Of a stretch of DNA of 49,810 bases, positions 460-14,867 are shown in pieces; positions within the stretch are counted from its first letter, which is position 1; every line of letters begins with the position of its first letter. The translations under genes and the position numbers were made by a program. The stretch spans positions 6,866-56,675 of the forward strand of contig CAZKRG010000002.1 of the NCBI GenBank assembly GCA_964555255.1, in the 5' to 3' direction. The DNA comes from an uncultured Candidatus Saccharibacteria bacterium (GTDB taxonomy: Bacteria; Patescibacteriota; Minisyncoccia; UBA6257; 2-01-FULL-56-20). Below the pieces are notes generated by a model. That model saw nothing but the letters and a program-made list of their open reading frames with translations. It did no database searches and was not told the DNA's origin.

Positions 460-984
460 ATGTATGATGGAGCGGCCATCACTATTCCTCGCATCAACAG
501 TAAAATCATTGCGCCCCAGCTCCTAGTAATAGGCCCTGACGGTGCGAATCTCGGCATTCTTACGCGAGATGAGGCCTTGAAGCTCATACGACCCGCGGAA
601 GGGATTGATCTCATCGAGATCGCGCCGACTGCACAGCCTCCCGTAGCACGACTCATGAGTTTTGATAAATACCGCTACGAAGCCGAGAAACGGGAGAAGA
701 AAGAGCGCCAGACACGTACGAAGACTGCTCTTAAGCAGGTACAGATCAGCGCACGCGCGGCGCATAATGATCTCCTTATCAAAGCGCGGCAGGCAGATAA
801 ATTTCTCGGAGAAGGACATCAGGTAGAAGTGCAAATGCGGCTCCGGGGACGGGAGAAAAACAATAAAGATTGGGCGTTCGAGAAACTTAACGAATTTCTT
901 TCTCTTATCACGATGGAGTATAAAAAGATTGATGAGCCGCGGTTTGGAGGGAGAGGCATGGGTCTCCATATCATCAAAAAGTAA
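460..984 (+). CDS. infC: translation initiation factor IF-3
   Basis: 174-aa ORF with IF-3 sequence (RINSKIIAPQLLVIGPDGANLGILTRDEAL; GIDLIEIAPTAQPPVARLMSFDKYRYE). It heads the conserved infC-rpmI-rplT order. The real start may be the in-frame ATT at 484 (GGAG at 469-472). Confidence 0.9.
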   Translation: MYDGAAITIPRINSKIIAPQLLVIGPDGANLGILTRDEALKLIRPAEGIDLIEIAPTAQPPVARLMSFDKYRYEAEKREKKERQTRTKTALKQVQISARAAHNDLLIKARQADKFLGEGHQVEVQMRLRGREKNNKDWAFEKLNEFLSLITMEYKKIDEPRFGGRGMGLHIIKK

Positions 985-3122: not shown

Positions 3123-4862
3123 CTAAGACTTTAGCAACTTCAGCATTTTCTCCAGTGGCCAAGCATTTATAATATCTCCTTTTTCTGCCCATCCCCTTCT
3201 CGCCTGCGCAATGCCATCTTCTAAGAATGCAAAATGGGAAGGAGCGTGCGCGTCGGAATCAATCGAGAGCTTTACTCCCGCGTCTACACATTGGCGTACG
3301 TGGTCGGCGCTCAAATCCAGCCGCTCAAAGGAATCAACTTCAAGCACCGTGCCGGCATCTTTCGCAGTCCTGATTACTTTTGCCATATCCACTGCGTACG
3401 GCGCGCGCCGGCCCACGATCCTGCCGGTGGGGTGGAATAAGATATCCACGTGAGGATTGCGGATTGCCCGAATAATACGCGCGGTTTGCTCTTCCTCAGG
3501 GAGGTTGAAATACGAATGTACCGATACTCCCACCACGTCTAATTGTTTCAGAATCGAATCCGGCAAATCCAACGACCCATCTTTTAAAATGTCGCACTCC
3601 GTGCCTTTGAGTACACGGATTACGTCGCCGAGTTTTTTATTCACTGCGTCAATTTCTTTCCACTGCGCTTTGATCCGTTTCTCATCCAACCCGTGCATCA
3701 TTGCGAGGCGCTTCGTGTGATCCGTGATCGCAATATACTTCAGCCCCCGTGCTGCTGCTCCCCGCGCCATTTCTTCTATGGAATTTCGGCCATCGGTCCA
3801 GGTGCTATGCATCTGCAAATCTCCTTGGAGCGCCCCATATTCTATAAGTTTGGGAAGCGTATGCGCCGCCGCAGCTTCTACCTCGCCGGTATTTTCGCGC
3901 AACTCGGGTTCAATATAGTCCATTCCGAAGGCAGCGTAGAGTTCTTCCTCTGACTTCCCTGCAACCATTTGCTCCTTGCCACGCACCATGCGCCACAATC
4001 CGTACTCATTAAGCTTCCATTTCTTCTTCAACGCCAACTGGCGGAGCGCTACATTATGATCCTTCGAGCCGGTGAAGTAATTCAGCGCCGCGCCGTAGGA
4101 CTCTGCGGGCACAACCCGCAAATCCGCATCAAGCCCCCACGCAAGCCGCACGGAAGACTTTGTTGCACCATGGGCATGCACTTGAGCCACGCTCGGCATT
4201 GAGACAAAAAAATCCATAACTTCCTTCGGTTTTTCGGCTGTCGCCAAAATATCAATATCTCCCACCGTTTCCTTGCGCCGCCGCACCGAACCCGCTACCA
4301 CACACCGCTCTACCTCCTTGCAATCCCGCAATCGCATTTCCAGCTCGCGAGCGAGGGGCATTACCATGCCAAGAGAAAAACGCCCTATGGAAGTTTTTTG
4401 AAACTCAATACCTTTCAAAATATTCTCTTCTATTCTTCTGCCAAATCCCCGTACCTCACGAAGCTTCCCTTGGCGCACTGCAACCTCTAGTTCATCGCGA
4501 TTTCGTATTGTTAGTTCCTTGTACAACTTCAGGATAGTCTTCGGCCCCATTCCTTCTATTTCCGCGAAAGATTTGATGTCTACGGGCACTTTCTTCTTCA
4601 ATTCTTCGTGATAGGCAACTTTCCCCGTTCTTAATAATTCCTCAATCTTCCCAGCGATGGAAATTCCCACTCCTGGGATTTCTTCAACCGCTCTCACACC
4701 TCCTTCTCTATAGAGTTCTACGAGGGGTTTCGTCATAGATTCAACAGAAACTGCGGCTTTCTCATATGCTCGCGGTTTAAACGGCACCTCTTGCATTTCA
4801 AGGAAAAGCGCGATTTCTCGTAACACTCGCGCCACATCTGTATTTTGTACTTCGGATATCAT
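3123..4862 (-). CDS. polX: family X DNA polymerase with C-terminal PHP domain
   Basis: 579 aa. It has N-terminal HhH motifs (GVGISIAGKIEELL, GMGPKTILKLY), a nucleotidyltransferase motif (GSVRRRKETVGDIDIL) and PHP metal motifs (HSTWTDG, ITDHT, DSDAH). Confidence 0.9.
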   Translation of the reverse strand: MISEVQNTDVARVLREIALFLEMQEVPFKPRAYEKAAVSVESMTKPLVELYREGGVRAVEEIPGVGISIAGKIEELLRTGKVAYHEELKKKVPVDIKSFAEIEGMGPKTILKLYKELTIRNRDELEVAVRQGKLREVRGFGRRIEENILKGIEFQKTSIGRFSLGMVMPLARELEMRLRDCKEVERCVVAGSVRRRKETVGDIDILATAEKPKEVMDFFVSMPSVAQVHAHGATKSSVRLAWGLDADLRVVPAESYGAALNYFTGSKDHNVALRQLALKKKWKLNEYGLWRMVRGKEQMVAGKSEEELYAAFGMDYIEPELRENTGEVEAAAAHTLPKLIEYGALQGDLQMHSTWTDGRNSIEEMARGAAARGLKYIAITDHTKRLAMMHGLDEKRIKAQWKEIDAVNKKLGDVIRVLKGTECDILKDGSLDLPDSILKQLDVVGVSVHSYFNLPEEEQTARIIRAIRNPHVDILFHPTGRIVGRRAPYAVDMAKVIRTAKDAGTVLEVDSFERLDLSADHVRQCVDAGVKLSIDSDAHAPSHFAFLEDGIAQARRGWAEKGDIINAWPLEKMLKLLKS

Positions 4863-4983
4863 GACTAAAAAATACGTTCATCCATACTCGACGAGTTTCC
4901 ATAGCTCCTCCTTTGGAACGGGGGCCGCGATGACAAGATCGGGGCAAATTAGAATGTGCGCTCGACTTGCTCTCATACTCCCA

Positions 4984-7497
4984 TTATATCTTCCCATCCG
5001 ATATAAATTGAAAAATGTTCCCTTCTGCACGCAGAGTAACCGTGTTGCCTCTCGCCATCTTTTTTTCTAAAATTTCCTTAGAAAGTGGCGCGCGAATTTT
5101 TTCCTCCAGCACTCGCCGCAAAGGCCTTGCGCCAAATTGAGGTTCATATCCTATCTTCGCGAGGAGTTCTATGGCGGAATCTTCTACGCGCAGCATAATA
5201 CCTTGAGTCTCGAGAATTTTCTCCAACTCTTTCACTTGCAACATGGCAATCTGTTGCAGTTCTTTAGGTCCTAGATCTTTGAATATAACAATCTTAGAGA
5301 AACGATTTATTAACTCTGGGCGGAACACATCCGTAAGTCGGCTTTTCAAATATTCTGCAATTTCCCCCATTGACTGGCCCTTCCGAAGCGCTTCGTTTAT
5401 AAGATCCGAATGTGCATTCGAAGTAGCAATAAGAACAGTATTTTCAAAACTCACCGTTCTCCCCAACGCATCCGTGAGCCGACCATCATCAAACACTTGG
5501 AGGAATAGATCCAATATGTTCGCGTGAGCTTTTTCAAATTCATCTAAGAGTACTACACAGTAGGGTTTCTCCCGGACCGCACGGGTGAGCGCTCCATCCA
5601 CCGTGCCATCCGAAGTACCAATAAATCGCCTGATACTCATGATTTCTTGATATTCTGTCATATCAAAGCGTATCATTGCTTTTTCAGAACCGAATTCCAC
5701 TTCTGCAAGCGTCTTTGCCAGTTCTGTTTTCCCTACTCCCGTGGGGCCCACGAAAAGGAAGGTGGCAATGGGGCCGCCTCTCCGCGCCAAGCCGCTTCGG
5801 TATTCTCGAAAAGCATCAGCTACCGCATGGACCGCTTCTTCTTGATCTATCATCCTCGCGTGGATAATCTCCTCGAGATGGAGTAACTTCTCTACCTCTT
5901 CCCCCTCCGCTTCGTGTATGGGGACATTTACCCGCGCTTCGAGCGCGTGAATGACTCCTTCATGCCGCAGTAATTTTTCTTTTCTCTGCTGCGCTGCTGC
6001 TACCGCACTCTTTAGAAGCTCTTCGGCACTCGTGGGTAACAATTTCTCATGCACATACTGTTTCGCAAGGCGCACGGCACTCTTAATCGCTCCGAACGTT
6101 ACTTTCACCCCATACTGTTGCTCCAAAAGCAGCGCGTCATATGTAAGAACTGTTATGGCTTCTTTCTCAGAAATTTCTTCCACTCGAATGGTTTCGAATA
6201 GGGCAGTGACGTCACTTCGCATCTCAATCGCCGCGGCATATTCGCGAGGATATGTGGTCCCTATTACAGGGAAAACATTGTCTCGAAGGATCGGGGTTAG
6301 GGCATCCGCCACCGAGAGGTATGCAGAGGAGGAGGTTTTTAAAAAATTGTGGATGTCGGGGAGATATAAGATAATGTTTCCGGCATCGATAATTTCGGTT
6401 ACCACACTTTGGAGGCGCGCGTGGAGTACTTCCGGCGGAGCTCCAGCCACAAGCTCTGTCACATTCAATCCCACCAAGCGCTTATCAAAAAGAGACTTTG
6501 GCACTTCGTCTTTAGTGAGACGCAGCGCAAGATGCCCCACGAGTGTTTCCTTTCCCGCCCCCGTTTCTCCTACAAGAAGTACGTTCGGATTTAACGGCCG
6601 CGCCAATATTTCTATAATGCGTTCCATTTCTGCATTGTGTCCCACGAGAAATCCCACCGACCCAAGTCGGGCAAGGTCTGTAAAGTCCGTACTATAGGCA
6701 TCAAGGGTGGGCGTGGGACGCGCAGTCCATGCCCGATTCATCACCCGATGGCGGCGGTCCCGCCGCATCCGAACCCCTCCTGGGGAGAAGGAAGTGAGCT
6801 TCCTCATCTTTTGCATGAGTTCTCCCGCAAGTACCGCCCCTTCAAGATCTGCAGCCTCAATTGAAAATATATTTAAAATTCTCTCAATATTTGGATCTTT
6901 TAAGACTGTGAACGCCCTTAGAATGTCTGTGGGTTCTATGAAGTCGTGCCTGGCTTCTTCGGCTTCCTTTAACGCTTCTACTACTACCACCTCCACTTGC
7001 TTTCGACGTTCTTCCCATGACATTCCTATTTCCCCCGCTGCTTCTTGTATCCTCTTCCCTACATCCTTTGGGGAAATTTCTAATCGCTCTAACCCTTCTT
7101 CTACGGCAGGGTTCTTCAGTACTTCTTGAAAAATTTCGAGGAGTACCTCGGTACGTTTGACTGCACTCCGCTCGAAGGCGCGCTCAAGGATCCCAAATGC
7201 GACCGATGAAACACACCAATGAACAGGTATGGGATTTTTGGTGAGACACTCTCGAATTTTTTTATCACCTCCTTTTGCATGTCGACTACGATCAATAAGA
7301 AACAACACCAGTAGTGCTCCTAGCGCCTGGAGCGAGTACCCCCCGGAAAGGATCAGTGTTATGGCAAGTCCTACGAGAAAGAGTAATGTAATATAGGCAA
7401 CAACCCGGACGGTAAATCGACCCACTCCTGACATCCGCAAGCGTGGATCATCAAAGATAAACTGCCTCTCTCGAATTTTAGAGAACGCGGATTCCAT
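4984..7497 (-). CDS. Clp/Hsp100-type double AAA+ ATPase with N-terminal transmembrane segment and degenerate first ATPase domain
   Basis: D2 is canonical (GPTGVGKTELAKTLA, VVLLDEFEKAH). D1 aligns to ClpB/ClpC but reads GETGAGKETL and ILYLPDIH. The start is set at ATG 7497 (MESAFSK); the longer TTG-initiated ORF to 7584 overlaps the upstream gene. A hydrophobic stretch (VVAYITLLFLVGLAITLILSGG) follows the start. Confidence 0.8.
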   Translation of the reverse strand: MESAFSKIRERQFIFDDPRLRMSGVGRFTVRVVAYITLLFLVGLAITLILSGGYSLQALGALLVLFLIDRSRHAKGGDKKIRECLTKNPIPVHWCVSSVAFGILERAFERSAVKRTEVLLEIFQEVLKNPAVEEGLERLEISPKDVGKRIQEAAGEIGMSWEERRKQVEVVVVEALKEAEEARHDFIEPTDILRAFTVLKDPNIERILNIFSIEAADLEGAVLAGELMQKMRKLTSFSPGGVRMRRDRRHRVMNRAWTARPTPTLDAYSTDFTDLARLGSVGFLVGHNAEMERIIEILARPLNPNVLLVGETGAGKETLVGHLALRLTKDEVPKSLFDKRLVGLNVTELVAGAPPEVLHARLQSVVTEIIDAGNIILYLPDIHNFLKTSSSAYLSVADALTPILRDNVFPVIGTTYPREYAAAIEMRSDVTALFETIRVEEISEKEAITVLTYDALLLEQQYGVKVTFGAIKSAVRLAKQYVHEKLLPTSAEELLKSAVAAAQQRKEKLLRHEGVIHALEARVNVPIHEAEGEEVEKLLHLEEIIHARMIDQEEAVHAVADAFREYRSGLARRGGPIATFLFVGPTGVGKTELAKTLAEVEFGSEKAMIRFDMTEYQEIMSIRRFIGTSDGTVDGALTRAVREKPYCVVLLDEFEKAHANILDLFLQVFDDGRLTDALGRTVSFENTVLIATSNAHSDLINEALRKGQSMGEIAEYLKSRLTDVFRPELINRFSKIVIFKDLGPKELQQIAMLQVKELEKILETQGIMLRVEDSAIELLAKIGYEPQFGARPLRRVLEEKIRAPLSKEILEKKMARGNTVTLRAEGNIFQFISDGKI

Positions 7498-9962: not shown

Positions 9963-9976
9963 CACTTATTGTGTTG

Positions 9977-10048
9977 TGCGCCCGCGAGGAATTGAACCTC
10001 GATATCATCCTTCGGAGGGATGCATTCTATCCGTTGAACTACGGGCGC
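9977..10048 (-). tRNA. tRNA-Arg (anticodon CCG)
   Basis: The reverse complement folds as a 72-nt cloverleaf: acceptor GCGCCCG/CGGGCGC, D arm GUUC-AACGGAUA-GAAU, anticodon arm CAUCC-CUCCGAA-GGAUG, T arm CGAGG-UUCAAUU-CCUCG, discriminator A. CCA is not encoded. Confidence 0.9.
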
Positions 10049-11533: not shown

Positions 11534-12145
11534 TTACAAGGGCAAATCCTTTTCTTCTTCCTGTATTAATGCGACTACTTTCTTTAATAACTTTTCGGGA
11601 TCTTTTTCAAATACCACTTTGCCATACCCGCGATGCGCCTTGTCGAGAAATTCCGGGAGCATCTCTACCGTTCCTCCGGTTCCCGAGAGTACTCCTTGTG
11701 GCTTCTCATCTTCGAAGGCATCCGTAAATTCGTTCATAGTCCCGATCCGCCCGCACACCGTGATCACCGCATCCGCGGAGCGCGTGAGAAGAAGGTTGCG
11801 GCCGGAGTACCCAAAGCCGGTGTAGATGATAAGATCGTGGTAGTCTGTGGGAAGACGATACGTTTTCACGTGCTGGATTTTGGAATAGGCCGGCGAAATC
11901 CCGATCACCGTGCCTCCCGCTTCCTTCGCTCCCTTCGCGGCCCAAAGCGGCGTCCCTGTTGTCGCCCCTGTGACCAAAATCATCCCCTGCTCGGCGATAA
12001 GCCGTCCCAAAAGTTCGGCTTTCTCGACCGCATCCGGCGCACATACTCCGGTTTCTGCCGATCCCGAAATGCAAATTTTGTATTTTAACGTTTTGAGGAG
12101 CGCTTCTGGTGCTTTTATCACCGGTTTTCGCGCGGTAGTAGCCAT
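11534..12145 (-). CDS. TIGR00725/LOG-SLOG family Rossmann-fold protein
   Basis: 203 aa with ICISGSA...LVTGATTG...GRIGTMNEF, the pattern typical of the LOG/DprA-like (SLOG) superfamily. Confidence 0.7.
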   Translation of the reverse strand: MATTARKPVIKAPEALLKTLKYKICISGSAETGVCAPDAVEKAELLGRLIAEQGMILVTGATTGTPLWAAKGAKEAGGTVIGISPAYSKIQHVKTYRLPTDYHDLIIYTGFGYSGRNLLLTRSADAVITVCGRIGTMNEFTDAFEDEKPQGVLSGTGGTVEMLPEFLDKAHRGYGKVVFEKDPEKLLKKVVALIQEEEKDLPL

Positions 12146-12167
12146 AGGAAAAGTATACCATCTCCCA

Positions 12168-12186
12168 ATTCAAAAGCGCGCTCCGA
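12168..12186. repeat. 19-nt exact direct repeat, copy 2
   Basis: Identical to 11508-11526. It lies 22 nt upstream of the TIGR00725-like start and overlaps the hairpin at 12173-12200. Confidence 0.9.
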
Positions 12187-12207
12187 CTGGAACGCGCTTT
12201 GTTTTTT
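12173..12207. terminator. hairpin terminator (predicted, usable on both strands)
   Basis: AAAGCGCG-12 nt-CGCGCTTT followed by G+T6 on the plus strand. On the minus strand the stem is followed by TTTTGAATT, downstream of the lipoprotein gene. Confidence 0.55.
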
Positions 12208-12244
12208 GGATGAGACTCCGCATAAGCTCATCCGAGTTGATTTA

Positions 12245-12604
12245 TTATCCCCCTGCGGCGAGGGTCAGGTGCAGGTTGCAGAGGGAAGTTTTCGGGTACG
12301 CCTTGGAACTGATGAGGCGCACTTTCCCCACGGAGGGGTCCCACCGAATTACCATTTCAACCCTTGCAGGCTGACCGTTGGTGAGCAGCGTAACCGTAAC
12401 TGCCCGATGGACCCGGAGATAATCCACAAGATTTGTGGATGTGGTTTCCACCACAACCTCCCCGTTTGTTCCCTGTACTACCACCCTCCAGTGGACGCTC
12501 GGGAATCTGGTTTGGTTGAAGCAACTTTTGTCCTCGCCGCAACCCGAAGTGAAGAGAACTACGATTGCCACAAGGGCGATCTCAATGCTTTTAATGGTAT
12601 TCAT
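12245..12604 (-). CDS. predicted lipoprotein (hypothetical)
   Basis: From ATG 12604 the protein starts MNTIKSIEIALVAIVVLFTSGCGED, a signal peptide with lipobox FTSG-C. The longer GTG start at 12616 is less likely. Confidence 0.55.
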   Translation of the reverse strand: MNTIKSIEIALVAIVVLFTSGCGEDKSCFNQTRFPSVHWRVVVQGTNGEVVVETTSTNLVDYLRVHRAVTVTLLTNGQPARVEMVIRWDPSVGKVRLISSKAYPKTSLCNLHLTLAAGG

Positions 12605-12766
12605 GCAATTTGCCACTATGCATGCACCGAAGCAGGTTGCATGAATACCTTTTTCTAGAATTTAGGAGCAACTTTATGAATTCGTCTCTCGAAATTCGAG
12701 ATAAACTCAATGAAGTTGTGACGGATGTCCGATTCCATCCGCCGGTTAAATTAAAATTTTTTCGCG

Positions 12767-13294
12767 CTAATCGGTGCGCTGACCCTGGTTTGCCCAGGCA
12801 GAGGGGCGAGTTTCCTCTTCTTCTTCGGAAGACTTGGCCGGTGGCGGATTTTGCATGGCTTCCAGGATTGCCTGAAAGCTTTCCTCTGTGACGAGTCCCG
12901 CGGCGATCATGAGAGTTGCAGCGGTTCGCGCCGCACCCCATCCATAGCCGTGGACCAAGTGCACTTTGCCAAAGATGAATTTGGCTAACCGGTCCTCCAG
13001 TGTTTCCTCCTGCTGAGGAGTCGGAAGGGGGCGTTCCAAGCCGTATTCGCTGAAAAATTCAGCGATGATTCGGAGGCTCTTTCTCCCGAAATCCCGATAT
13101 TTCAGGAGATCCCAATCGGTTTTTTTCCGAAGATCACCCACGCGTTCCAACCCGGCGTTGGTGAGCGGCGTTACTACCTTAGTCGGGAACACCTCGTCGA
13201 GCCGTAACATGTACAGCCCGATTCTGTCTCCCCGCGCCTTCAGGTCGGTGAGTTTTTTCGTTCGCGCGATTCGTTTTTCGATTTTTGTTTTCAT
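12767..13294 (-). CDS. stand-alone RNA polymerase alpha C-terminal-domain-like (HhH) protein
   Basis: Residues LTNAGLERVGDLRKKTDWDLLKYRDFGRKSLRIIAEFFSEYGL align by eye to the RpoA alpha-CTD (..SANCLK...IGDL...ELLK..NFGKKSL.EI...L...GL). The rest of the 175 aa is unassigned. Confidence 0.6.
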   Translation of the reverse strand: MKTKIEKRIARTKKLTDLKARGDRIGLYMLRLDEVFPTKVVTPLTNAGLERVGDLRKKTDWDLLKYRDFGRKSLRIIAEFFSEYGLERPLPTPQQEETLEDRLAKFIFGKVHLVHGYGWGAARTAATLMIAAGLVTEESFQAILEAMQNPPPAKSSEEEEETRPSAWANQGQRTD

Positions 13295-13333
13295 AGTGGT
13301 TTGTCTCCCTTAAGAGCCAGACAAACCACTATG
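13292..13333. repeat. perfect 15-bp-arm inverted repeat over the start codon
   Basis: CATAGTGGTTTGTCT-12 nt-AGACAAACCACTATG. The left arm contains the ATG (complement) of the alpha-CTD-like gene. Confidence 0.9.
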
Positions 13334-13405
13334 AAAACTTTTTCCAAAGAACTTTTCTGTTTCGCTCTTTTGAGCTCATCAGCACCGACATACATCGGTG
13401 AACAG

Positions 13406-13434
13406 AGGAGGATTCTGGTCCTCCTGATTTTTTT
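13406..13434 (+). terminator. plus-strand terminator-like hairpin
   Basis: AGGAGGA-TTCTGG-TCCTCCT followed by GA+T7 (13428-13434). No plus-strand gene is upstream. Confidence 0.4.
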
Positions 13435-13489
13435 ACACGAGCATCCGCACATGCTCGTCCGATTGATTGTCCCCGTTGCGGGGCGGGGT

Positions 13490-13786
13490 TCATAGTTCAA
13501 ACCATTCTTCCGACTCCAGTCCTGGGAACCTCTTTACCGATTCTAACCCAGGAGTTTCCACGTCAATGGAAAAGCTGGCAGCCGACTTCCACCACGGAAG
13601 GGTTTCAATCACCCTCACCCGCAGTCTTTCTCCCTTGCAGAAAGTCAAATGGCAACAAAACTTTTCTCCGGAACTTGGAACTCCGGTATAGAGTCTTGTC
13701 CATTCACTCTCTCGGAAGAGAGCCGTTTGAACATACTTCCGTACCGCGATGCGTACGGCCGTTTCTATCACTTTTGGCATTTTCAT
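13490..13786 (-). CDS. hypothetical protein (98 aa)
   Basis: ATG-initiated ORF and first ORF downstream of the consensus promoter at 14361-14389. No recognisable motif. Confidence 0.4.
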   Translation of the reverse strand: MKMPKVIETAVRIAVRKYVQTALFRESEWTRLYTGVPSSGEKFCCHLTFCKGERLRVRVIETLPWWKSAASFSIDVETPGLESVKRFPGLESEEWFEL

Positions 13787-13856
13787 ATTGAAACCGCCAA
13801 AATTTACTAAAGAGCTCTATGAATCCGCGAACTTGCGCTCATGGACTCAATGAAGT

Positions 13857-14354
13857 GGGGAAGACAGGAAAAGATTCCTGTCTTCCCCGATTTAAAGTTG
13901 CGCCGCCACGCGCTTTCGGCAACTTTTGTTGTGCCGCCGACATATCCGGAGAGACTCGCCCGGATTCAGTCGGAGCAGGCTTAATACCTGCATACCCGGG
14001 ATCTCAATCCGGTTTTACAAACGTCTTCCTTTTCGGATAGATCGTAGCGATTCCCCTCTCCTTACGGAGGCTACCGTGCGGATGGATGCCGAATCCACGC
14101 CGGACGGAAAATCCTTCGGGGCATGAAGGAAAATGGAGATAGGTTGGATATGAATAAGAAGACCAACCCTGCGCTTTTTGAAAGTCGCTGTCACTTGGAG
14201 TGACTTTGCCCTGTGTGGGCGCGCCGATACGCCTCTAGTATCTGCGTTTTCAGGATGGGAAAGAGCTAAGCCAGCGCTTAGCTTTCCGGGTAGGCAGGAC
14301 TCGATATATGACTGGGAGTCCTGTCCCATCGGAAAGCTAAATACCAGCTTTCGT
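13857..14354 (-). ncRNA. candidate ~500-nt structured RNA or ornate 5' leader (unclassified)
   Basis: Lies directly downstream of a perfect sigma70 promoter and has no credible ORF. It is a chain of perfect hairpins ending in a 14-bp stem (13857-13888). See findings. Confidence 0.4.
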
Positions 14355-14360
14355 GCGGCC

Positions 14361-14389
14361 ATTATAGCCGGTGTGTTAAAATATGTCAA
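14361..14389 (-). promoter_or_regulatory. consensus sigma70 promoter
   Basis: Minus-sense TTGACA (14389-14384), a 17-nt spacer, then TATAAT (14366-14361). The predicted start is near A14354. Confidence 0.6.
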
Positions 14390-14560
14390 GTACTTTTGTC
14401 ATAATAGTCAAAAATATCATTATTTATCAATGATTTATAGCATATTTTTGTCATCCTTAAATATCTTATTTTAACTGTCATTTTTTAATAAAACTTTTGT
14501 CTTTACTTTTCAACTTAATAGCTCTTAAATCTGTGAAATGTCATTTAATATTGACAAAAT
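14383..14560. repeat. AT-rich spacer with repeated (T)TTTGTCA motifs
   Basis: TTTTGTCA occurs at 14394-14401 and 14446-14453, CTGTCA at 14475-14480, TTTTGTCT at 14495-14502 and AATGTCA at 14537-14543. An inverted copy, TTGACAAAAT, is at 14551-14560, and ATGTCAA at 14383-14389. Confidence 0.5.
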
Positions 14561-14579
14561 TTAAATATTCTGCTACGCT
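14551..14579 (+). promoter_or_regulatory. sigma70-like promoter
   Basis: TTGACA (14551-14556), a 17-nt spacer, then TACGCT (14574-14579). It faces away from the minus-strand promoter. Confidence 0.45.
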
Positions 14580-14585
14580 TCTCCG

Positions 14586-14867
14586 CGCGGGGGTAATGCA
14601 AGTTAACAACACAGCGCCATGTCTTCGGTGTACCACCTCGCCACTAAACAGTGGCTCTGGCTCTGGTAAATCGCCCCGCTACCGAAGGGCGACGCTAAAA
14701 AGAAAGGGAGTTCTCCTATGAAAAGAGGGGATGACGGATAACGGATGCCAGTAGGCATAGTCTCCAGCCGAATTATCGGCTGCAGACTTAATGAAGCGGG
14801 CGGGAAAAAACTCACCCGATTCTGGCTCGGTGGTACATAGTGACTACCGAGCCCTTATTTTTTCTTT
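14586..14867 (+). ncRNA. candidate ~280-nt structured RNA (unclassified)
   Basis: Bounded by a promoter and a strong intrinsic terminator, with no credible ORF. Hairpins include GCCACT-AAAC-AGTGGC, TCGCCC/GGGCGA, ATGCC-AGTA-GGCAT and CAGCCGA-ATTA-TCGGCTG. Confidence 0.4.
14824..14867 (+). terminator. rho-independent terminator
   Basis: An 11-bp stem GGCTCGGTGGT-8 nt-ACTACCGAGCC (one G-U pair) followed by TTATTTTTTCTTT. The T-run overlaps the TrmB-like stop codon. Confidence 0.7.

Follow-up and report, generated by a model that had tools for sequence, protein, structure and literature searches.

The feature described here lies on the minus strand (positions 13787-14389) of a 49.8-kb stretch of Patescibacteria DNA, the whole of which was analysed and is called the window below, in the spacer between an open reading frame (ORF) of 98 amino acids and a TrmB-like regulator gene. 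The flanks of the window consist of chromosomal housekeeping genes (CTP synthase, RuvA, Mur ligase, beta-CASP RNase, ClpB, UDG and PolX). A transcript of about 2.2 kb is predicted on the minus strand, which starts near 14354 and carries in this order a long leader, the 98-aa ORF, a hammerhead ribozyme, a 175-aa ORF, a copy of a small structured motif that we designate TH, a lipoprotein ORF and a terminator at about 12172. The terminator scan of the region detected none between the ornate module of the leader (module M) and the 98-aa ORF, therefore this RNA is physically a leader. An earlier inspection of the letters (the sequence-only reading) had described it as an almost continuous chain of helices. 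The structured RNA was confirmed, but the single chain of hairpins was not: the leader is composed of three separately conserved elements, which are a long 5' hairpin (domain A), module M and a first copy of TH.

The promoter proposed in that reading, a textbook sigma70-type site, was borne out in its boxes, in its 17-nt spacing and in its predicted start at A14354, which is situated 7 nt past the -10 box. This 12/12 match is the sole such site in the region and the sole exact match in the window, where 0.03 would be expected from shuffles. About 18 related loci have a consensus TTGACA-16/17-TATA(A/C)T in the equivalent position behind the TrmB gene. It had also been claimed that the feature contains no credible ORF, and indeed the sole sizeable frame is a mechanical 124-aa ORF with a TTG start, which begins inside the -35 box. 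A protein-coding reading was rejected, as neither the 124-aa nor the 98-aa frame has a Pfam match and the homologous regions vary by insertions and deletions and by changes that compensate each other in stems.

The 568-nt sense RNA (A14354 to 13787) folds with -237.5 kcal/mol, compared to -174.7 +/- 6.2 kcal/mol of dinucleotide shuffles (z = -10.2), while the antisense strand reaches z = -5.4. In 300-nt sliding windows the leader gave z = -6.2 and -7.8, and the flanking ordinary or housekeeping genes gave about -1.5 to +1.9. All of the helix arms listed in the sequence-only reading were present at the expected coordinates, including the terminal 14-bp perfect stem with its 4-nt loop (GGGGAAGACAGGAA 13888-75 / TTCCTGTCTTCCCC 13870-57), which ends 71 nt before the ATG at 13786. 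Known families were sought with the covariance models of Rfam 15, both at the gathering score and at E <= 10, in the whole window, in sub-regions of it and in 17 related loci. Positions 13787-14354 matched no Rfam 15 family at the gathering score, and the sole match of this level in the window is a tRNA-Arg (CCG) at 9976-10048 (-), directly downstream of a permease gene. At E <= 10, searches of 1.7 kb and of 581 nt returned only chance hairpin matches to microRNA and long non-coding RNA models with 13-19 bits. The absence of RNase P, tmRNA and SRP RNA, noted earlier by eye, was hereby extended to 6S, OLE, GOLLD, ROOL, HEARO, raiA, group I and group II introns, riboswitches and the known small ribozymes. 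In nine related loci the Rfam search found tRNAs only, and in all 17 loci tRNAs and sub-threshold hammerheads only. No paper describing domain A, module M or TH was found in the literature.

Relatives were sought via the TrmB-like gene, because the 175-aa and 98-aa proteins gave no homologue. This gene recovered 31 metagenome loci (loci are numbered with the prefix L); protein hits added L034 and L036, with 67% and 59% TrmB identity respectively, and contigs of Taylorbacteria and Paceibacterota came from scanning GTDB genomes with a DNA pattern. The identity of the TrmB proteins among the compared genomes is 48-77%, and 25% for the TrmB-like gene in Taylorbacteria; the orthologue at 77% identity is annotated as Candidatus Liptonbacteria. 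In nearly every locus the region downstream of TrmB has a GC-rich stretch, 150-300 nt of AT-rich spacer in which TGTCA/TGACA repeats abound, and an outward promoter, and the AT-rich repeat spacer as such is common to all related loci. In most loci the other strand has a consensus promoter too, which is directed towards TrmB. The forward transcript of the related loci extends over 1-2 kb without a convincing long ORF. The RNA was found to be conserved in these relatives with compensatory base-pair changes, as detailed below. Accordingly, the leader is neither a known housekeeping RNA, nor an unconserved stretch, nor a region that encodes a protein, these being the three outcomes that the sequence-only reading had named as fatal to its proposal.

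Domain A was recognized by folding the leaders individually, since MAFFT columns could not register stems of unequal length. Each of the 12 homologous leaders folds singly as one irregular hairpin of 25-40 bp, whose loop CCnAGnnAUnUAUCG is constant in all 12, while the stems are unrelated in sequence. In the window the apical loop CCCAGUCAUAUAUC (14315-14303) is placed between CAGGACUC and GAGUCCUG, and the extended pairing AGCUUUCCG/CGGAAAGCU is retained, one U-A of it being replaced by C-G in L036. Two of the helices listed earlier, GAAAGCT/AGCTTTC and AGCTAAGC/GCTTAGCT, do exist in the window, but they compete with the conserved fold of the relatives: they are not kept in L034 and L036, and their bases are used by the one long hairpin. 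A kissing interaction of the loop with the GGAUA region of M, checked by eye, was inconsistent across the homologues and was dropped.

Module M includes a GNRA hairpin (CUCC-GUAA-GGAG, 14069-14058) and a multi-hairpin core (13976-13891) with the hairpins AUCCGG/CCGGAU, GGCA/UGCC-GAAAG and GCGC-GUGGCG-GCGC. It was detected by nhmmer at full length in L034 and in three tandem copies in L003. RNAalifold assigned 109 pairs to the alignment of these four sequences, which also spans TH, and 92.5% of the cells are paired; compensatory changes occur in 30 of the 109 pairs, TH included, compared to 13.2 +/- 2.5 in shuffles and 2-9 in slid controls. The core could be aligned in six sequences, including a Taylorbacteria contig and L006, where 97% of the cells are paired and 7 of the 13 pairs are compensatory, and the covariance model (CM) built on it (R1) scores the window copy with 86.6 bits. 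The loop of the GNRA hairpin is GUAA, GUAA, GCAA, GAAA or GUGA in the homologues, on covarying stems. Long-range pairs are predicted by RNAalifold to close the module, CUUU 14263-60 (part of the GCUCUUU motif at 14260-14266) with AGAG 13818-15, and AGGG 14057-54 with CUUC 13855-52. M is rare, because CM R1 matched just the six seed copies in 366 kb and no dispersed ones, and it was seen only in Liptonbacteria- and Taylorbacteria-like genomes. The idea of M as a widespread element was abandoned, since nhmmer did not find it in most TrmB-linked arrays and CM R1 gave no further copies. The gene which follows M varies by genome: the window has the 98-aa ORF at this place, L034 a protein of 87 aa, L003 a weakly B116-like protein and L006 a small upstream ORF, or there is none. 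M is therefore not a riboswitch for one gene class; a conserved aptamer upstream of one class of genes, by which riboswitches are recognized, is not what is seen here.

The TH family has a common layout of about 75 nt, comprising a variable perfect hairpin P1, the linker (A)CUYYAUUG, a 12-bp hairpin P2 and a CAUAGAG tail. In P2 the segments CUY/GAG enclose an internal loop, AU//A, which is nearly invariant, so that three unpaired bases (A30, U31 and A103) are almost constant between covarying stems. In the first copy of the window P1 is the 14-bp hairpin at 13888-13857, followed by the linker ACUUCAUUG, by P2 (13849-13820) with the conserved internal loop, and by CAUAGAG. The covariance model of the family (CM R2) found 35 copies, nearly all on the array strand, of which 95.6% of the cells are paired, with 108 double-change cells compared to 28.7 +/- 4.0 in shuffles. 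At three TH positions G-U is the most frequent pair, therefore the structure is specific to the sense-strand RNA. One match of 41.5 bits was observed in L016 at 794-872 (+), about 7 kb from the TrmB-linked array, and TH may occur at other loci as well.

About 380 nt downstream of the leader, between the 98-aa and 175-aa ORFs, there is a type III hammerhead which the sequence-only reading had missed, and which places the leader in a larger RNA grammar. Its core is complete, with no deviating position (CUGAUGA...GAAA; CUGAUGAG, CGAAAC, and a GUU triplet followed by C, in accordance with the NUH rule), stems I, II and III have 7, 4 and 5 bp, stem III is open, no mispair is located beside the core, and cleavage is predicted between U13401 and C13400. 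With a strict structural filter, 16 type III hammerheads whose cores are complete were obtained on the array strand across the loci; their stems vary in sequence. L007 has three of them, L003 at least three, and L006, L025 and L028 at least two each; the window has one besides two TH copies. A link to phages was considered and rejected: the viral contigs of IMG/VR gave 0 matches to the TH pattern and 37 matches to a hammerhead-plus-GTTCTTT pattern, several of them duplicates and none with hammerhead stems by eye, i.e. chance-like matches only.

The order of the array is repeated from gene to gene: a structured element, the single-stranded heptamer G(U/C)UCUUU, a short A-rich stretch, and a perfect hairpin which contains the start codon, where the 5' arm (U)UUCAUAG pairs with the start-codon region CUAUGAA(A). 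In the start hairpin of the 98-aa ORF (UUUUGGC/GCCAAAA, 13802-13796 / 13778-13772) the ATG at 13786 stands in the loop. In the 18-bp hairpin of the 175-aa ORF a Shine-Dalgarno (SD)-like AAGGGAG extends from the end of the loop into the first base of the 3' arm, and the start hairpin behind the second TH, GUAUUCAUGCAA/UUGCAUGAAUAC (12648-12637 / 12608-12597), has the ATG at 12604 within it and recurs in L003. Since domain A also precedes a heptamer, M is bracketed by two of them (14266-14260 and 13815-13809). The three genes of the window are preceded by a TH, a type III hammerhead and a TH respectively, therefore TH and hammerhead are positionally interchangeable. When all GTTCTTT sites were listed (62 in arrays and 22 outside), the element before the in-array sites was a hammerhead in 12 cases and a TH in 14, compared to 0 of 22 outside, and a start-codon hairpin followed 20 of the 62 in-array sites versus 2 of the 22 others in a strict perfect-stem test.

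Table 1. Elements of the predicted minus-strand transcript and of its leader, in window coordinates
Feature	Positions	Strand	Basis or remark
Sigma70-type promoter: TTGACA (14389-14384), 17-nt spacer, TATAAT (14366-14361)	14361-14389	-	12/12 match
Helix GAAAGCT / AGCTTTC	14352-46 / 14338-32	-	sequence-only reading
Domain A, long irregular 5' hairpin, about 83 nt	14268-14350	-	individual folding of 12 leaders
Helix CAGGACTC / GAGTCCTG	14323-16 / 14302-14295	-	sequence-only reading
Helix AGCTAAGC / GCTTAGCT	14283-76 / 14271-64	-	sequence-only reading
First punctuation motif GCUCUUU (variant of GUUCUUU)	14260-14266	-	after domain A; also in L034 and L036
Module M, ornate multi-helix RNA, about 370 nt	13889-14259	-	nhmmer homologues, RNAalifold, covariance model
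Helix GGTTGG / CCAACC	14168-63 / 14147-42	-	sequence-only reading
Hairpin CTCC-GTAA-GGAG	14069-58	-	sequence-only reading
Helix GCAGG / CCTGC	13991-87 / 13979-75	-	sequence-only reading
Helix ATCCGG / CCGGAT	13965-60 / 13949-44	-	sequence-only reading
TH copy 1	13805-13888	-	CM R2, 54.1 bits, E = 7e-11
Second punctuation motif GCUCUUU (13815-13809), A-rich spacer, start hairpin	13772-13815	-	read from sequence
98-aa ORF, first cistron, orphan	13490-13786	-	start-codon context fits array grammar; coding unproven
Type III hammerhead	13354-13408	-	Rfam Hammerhead_3, 35.8 bits, E = 1.4e-5 (1.7-kb search)
GUUCUUU (13352-13346) and 18-bp perfect hairpin UUUUCAUAGUGGUUUGUC / GACAAACCACUAUGAAAA burying ATG 13294 of the 175-aa ORF	13288-13352	-	
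175-aa ORF, RNA polymerase alpha-CTD (C-terminal domain)-like, second cistron	12767-13294	-	Pfam PF03118, E = 3.5e-6
TH copy 2: P1 12740-12723, CM match 12715-12670	within 12597-12740	-	CM R2, 30.5 bits, E = 1e-4
Lipoprotein-like ORF (MNTIKS...), third cistron	12245-12604	-	tblastn
Intrinsic-terminator-like hairpin AAAGCGCG...CGCGCUUUU	12172-12200	-	read from sequence

The genes of the operon (Table 1) are largely orphans. The 98-aa ORF has no homologue among 5.8 billion proteins and no Pfam family, and for the 175-aa protein no homologues were found besides the Pfam domain match; genes 61-62% identical to that of the lipoprotein were found by tblastn inside the arrays of L022 and L025. The hairpin at 12172-12200 is likely the 3' end of the 2.2-kb transcript. 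The whole operon (12500-14400, minus strand) is abnormally structured, ORFs included (z = -4.2 for the 98-aa and -4.3 for the 175-aa ORF, compared to about 0 for the neighbouring housekeeping genes), because of which the coding status of the 98-aa ORF is uncertain.

The interval between TrmB and the conserved gene of a SLOG (LDcluster4) protein is hypervariable between near relatives, spanning 2.7 kb in the window (12145-14855), 4.1 kb in L034 (8744-12876) and 7.3 kb in L003 (10744-18015), with different small genes in each. Among the genes carried by other loci are a Ro60/TROVE orthologue, a HEPN/MNT pair, genes of receiver-like proteins, a homologue of the third (lipoprotein) gene of the window, and many orphans. 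The HEPN/MNT toxin-antitoxin pair is inserted in L034, and the Ro60/Rsr orthologue (TROVE and Ro60-vWA domains) is encoded in L019 at 3203-4867, where a GUUCUUU and a start-codon hairpin immediately precede it; proteins of the Ro60 family bind Y RNAs as well as RNAs that are structured or misfolded. No integrase or transposase was found in or beside the arrays. Three candidate assignments did not survive: the beta-CASP RNase as a universally linked processing enzyme, as its synteny is confined to a Liptonbacteria-like subgroup; a supposed resemblance of the L036 99-aa protein to Csx3, for which Pfam gave no hit; and a supposed resemblance of the L003 138-aa protein to DUF1874/B116, for which Pfam gave E = 1e-3, below threshold. 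The latter two are not claimed.

Taken together, we hold with moderate confidence that the feature is the 5' leader of a strongly transcribed three-gene transcript of about 2.2 kb, which is encoded in a Liptonbacteria-like Patescibacteria chromosome and has its organisation at the level of RNA, and in the best reading of the sequence this leader would be a cis-acting element for stability, processing and control of translation. Both options of the sequence-only reading, i.e. a leader of about 560 nt of the 98-aa / alpha-CTD-like / lipoprotein operon or an independent large RNA, found support; the second one is weighed below. In the proposed mechanism the TrmB-like regulator would control the divergent promoters via the AT-rich spacer with its TGTCA repeats, and domain A would cap the 5' end as a stabilising hairpin, probably being also a binding site through its conserved loop. 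The hammerhead would cut the transcript into separate RNAs and TH would probably do likewise, either via a host nuclease or by its own chemistry, leaving products with structured ends. The heptamer with the A-rich stretch might be a ribosome standby site beside the hairpin-closed start codon, which could set the translation of each gene locally. M might be an optional and duplicable accessory upstream of a TH, a compact domain with a tertiary fold (to which the GNRA loop and the long-range closing pairs point), and its role would most likely be to insulate or stabilise the RNA of the first gene, or to dock a factor.

Several points weigh against this model. Transcription, cleavage and the control of translation are all inferred. 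The window hammerhead scores below the Rfam gathering score of 48.5, which is due to the shortness of its stems and loops and not to the core; those of the relatives reach 46-48.3 bits. Of the 62 in-array GUUCUUU sites, 36 have no hammerhead and no CM-detectable TH before them. M is known from six copies at five loci in the 366 kb searched, and its covariation rests on few, partly related sequences. The orphan 98-aa ORF might be no gene, in which case leader would be the wrong word. Finally, the tandem M copies of L003, with no ORF between the first and the second and with the third between two hammerheads, fit a released independent RNA better than they fit a leader.

This last observation keeps the second option alive, namely that M, either alone or joined to domain A, is a stable non-coding RNA in its own right, which is cut out at the G(U/C)UCUUU, TH or hammerhead boundaries and acts in trans, e.g. 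in a ribonucleoprotein, while the ORFs merely share its promoter. We regard this as rather unlikely. In L003 the first M contains a 66-aa ORF, and the third M would be released by its two hammerheads with 5'-OH and cyclic-phosphate ends; the compact-fold features of M (conserved GNRA loop, long-range closing pairs, multi-hairpin core), the inconstancy of the genes downstream of it and the presence of an RNA-binding Ro60/TROVE orthologue among the array genes of L019 point in the same direction. However, in the window and in L034 M has no flanking ribozyme and no terminator after it, and it is physically the 5' untranslated region of the next ORF. Its absence from most of the related arrays argues against a core cellular role, and no partner protein co-occurs with it.

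The interchangeability of TH and hammerhead directly upstream of GUUCUUU, in the window in the order TH, hammerhead, TH, raises another alternative: TH, alone or together with M, could be a new class of self-cleaving or self-processing RNA, or a switch responding to a ligand or protein, which does the job of the hammerhead in a Patescibacteria-specific system of RNA-punctuated gene cassettes. The twister and later ribozyme classes were discovered by the same shared-context logic (PMC6765202), and the nearly invariant A30, U31 and A103 in an internal loop between covarying stems would suit a catalytic RNA. Nevertheless we consider this unlikely: TH has no similarity to any Rfam ribozyme at E <= 10, two hairpins with a small internal loop are equally typical of a recognition site of a protein or nuclease, and no cleavage site can be named from the letters. 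If TH or M were such a new self-processing RNA, the TrmB-linked array would represent a novel type of locus, in which accessory genes are organised through RNA.

It is very unlikely, in our view, that the units act as DNA, either as integron-like cassette recombination sites or with M as a selfish insertion by which the GCUCUUU target was duplicated, in which case the RNA folds would be incidental. The hypervariable TrmB-SLOG interval with its varied small cargo genes (the HEPN/MNT pair among them), the identical heptamers on both sides of M and the tandem duplication of M in L003 would be accounted for, and integron arrays (Pc promoter, promoterless cassettes, attC hairpins) likewise combine a strong promoter with hypervariable small genes at a fixed site and a GTT-containing hairpin repeat. 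Unlike in integrons, no tyrosine integrase is present, nor is any other integrase or a transposase found in or beside the arrays, and GTTCTTT has pyrimidines where the attC core GTTRRRY (R''/R' RYYYAAC / GTTRRRY) requires purines. The structure moreover belongs to the RNA strand: G-U pairs are numerous and at several positions the most frequent, and the sense strand gives a much better fold than the antisense. Hammerheads with a complete catalytic core stand in the same slots, and CM R1 revealed no dispersed M copies. A decayed gene or hairpin-rich filler behind a strong promoter, as the orphan ORFs of 98 and 175 aa and the narrow distribution of M might suggest, is hardly credible in view of the conserved promoter, the loop sequences kept on divergent stems, and the many helices with compensatory changes across genomes whose TrmB proteins are only 48-77% identical (25% in Taylorbacteria).

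Among the known systems the closest is that of the tandem hammerheads which flank variable genes, mostly in prophage regions, and which cut polycistronic RNAs in vitro (Perreault et al. 2011, PMC3088659). As in those arrays, several same-strand hammerheads stand between short variable genes on one long transcript (in L007, L003, L006, L025 and L028), and the role proposed there, the cutting of polycistronic RNA into gene-length pieces, follows the same logic. In contrast to them, the arrays described here occupy a chromosomal site of Patescibacteria between housekeeping genes, where integrase and phage genes are absent. A second motif not described before (TH) is found in the slots of the hammerheads, the slots are followed by the fixed heptamer GUUCUUU and a start-codon hairpin, and the transcript opens with an ornate leader of 570 nt.

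M shares with the OLE, GOLLD, ROOL, HEARO and raiA RNAs a size of several hundred nt, many covarying helices, GNRA-type loops, long-range closing pairs, a narrow phylogenetic range and the lack of protein-coding potential. It differs from them in having no Rfam 15 match and in being modular, tandemly duplicable and inside an mRNA leader; it is no free-standing gene with its own terminator. In the early mRNA of phage T7 intercistronic RNase III hairpins define the processing sites and leave protective hairpins on the products, and here too structured elements are found between the genes of a polycistronic RNA. Unlike the T7 hairpins, TH and domain A have conserved loop or internal-loop sequences and short irregular stems instead of long regular double-stranded RNA, self-cleaving ribozymes share the job, and no nuclease is assigned to TH or domain A.

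Patescibacteria (the candidate phyla radiation) have tiny genomes, and to our knowledge almost no regulatory RNAs have been described in them. One locus has provided three elements which are supported by covariation and absent from Rfam 15, namely the 5' hairpin, the ornate module of about 370 nt and TH, together with a simple repeated grammar of structured element, GUUCUUU and start-codon hairpin. Twister, pistol and hatchet were uncovered via their shared context with hammerheads, which makes TH a concrete candidate for biochemical testing. Variable genes at a fixed site beside one regulator hint at an unrecognised organisation of accessory genes. Why bacteria place self-cleaving ribozymes between variable genes is an unsettled question (PMC6765202), for which this locus, where a hammerhead and a non-hammerhead motif are interchangeable, offers a clean system.

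The 1068 nt between the 98-aa ORF and the TrmB-like gene, described in the sequence-only reading as lacking any credible ORF, do not all belong to this RNA. The remaining 465 nt are separate, containing an AT-rich operator-like stretch and a divergent promoter with a second structured transcript on the plus strand. The AT-rich spacer between the two divergent promoters (14390-14550, about 75-80% A+T) has at least six TGTCA(T/A)/TTGACA repeats, and it is a candidate operator for the adjoining TrmB-like regulator. The divergent promoter (TTGACA 14552-57, 17 nt, TACGCT 14575-80) opens a region (14552-14866, plus strand) with a predicted structured RNA of about 280 nt (z = -4.0), which has a strong SD sequence, a mini-ORF of seven codons (MKRGDDG*, 14718-14741) and a terminator (14824-14863) abutting the TrmB stop codon. 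Relatives have a matching layout on this strand, with mini-ORFs such as M-x-D-stop or MKHRTYRGDDG*. This RNA may encode a leader peptide or may be an antisense regulator of the 3' end of TrmB.

Other types of leader were also observed. In the more distant arrays (L007 about 2029-2079, L022 about 7436-7486, L006 about 11756-11827, L008, L016, L026 and L028) the first element after domain A is a small conserved ORF of 16-24 codons with a strong SD sequence (MTYIVxxDGT..., ...DG(S/T)....W...RGN*), followed by a conserved structured module of about 170 nt (GGAUCGCUCUAACCUUUG...GUGAAUGUCACCGUG...) and a TH-like hairpin, CAAGUYCACGA...CGCGRACUUGAWGAGG. A further type (L003 11300-11415, L036 9290-9385 and L034 10370-10445) consists of the hairpins GGUCCCnnnUGGUCAnGGGAU and CCGCnUCAGUGAAAAAnGCGG, of which the latter shares part of its 3' arm with the SD sequence GGGAGGAG of small ORFs, among them an ORF of 66-67 aa that is conserved in L003, L014 and L036.

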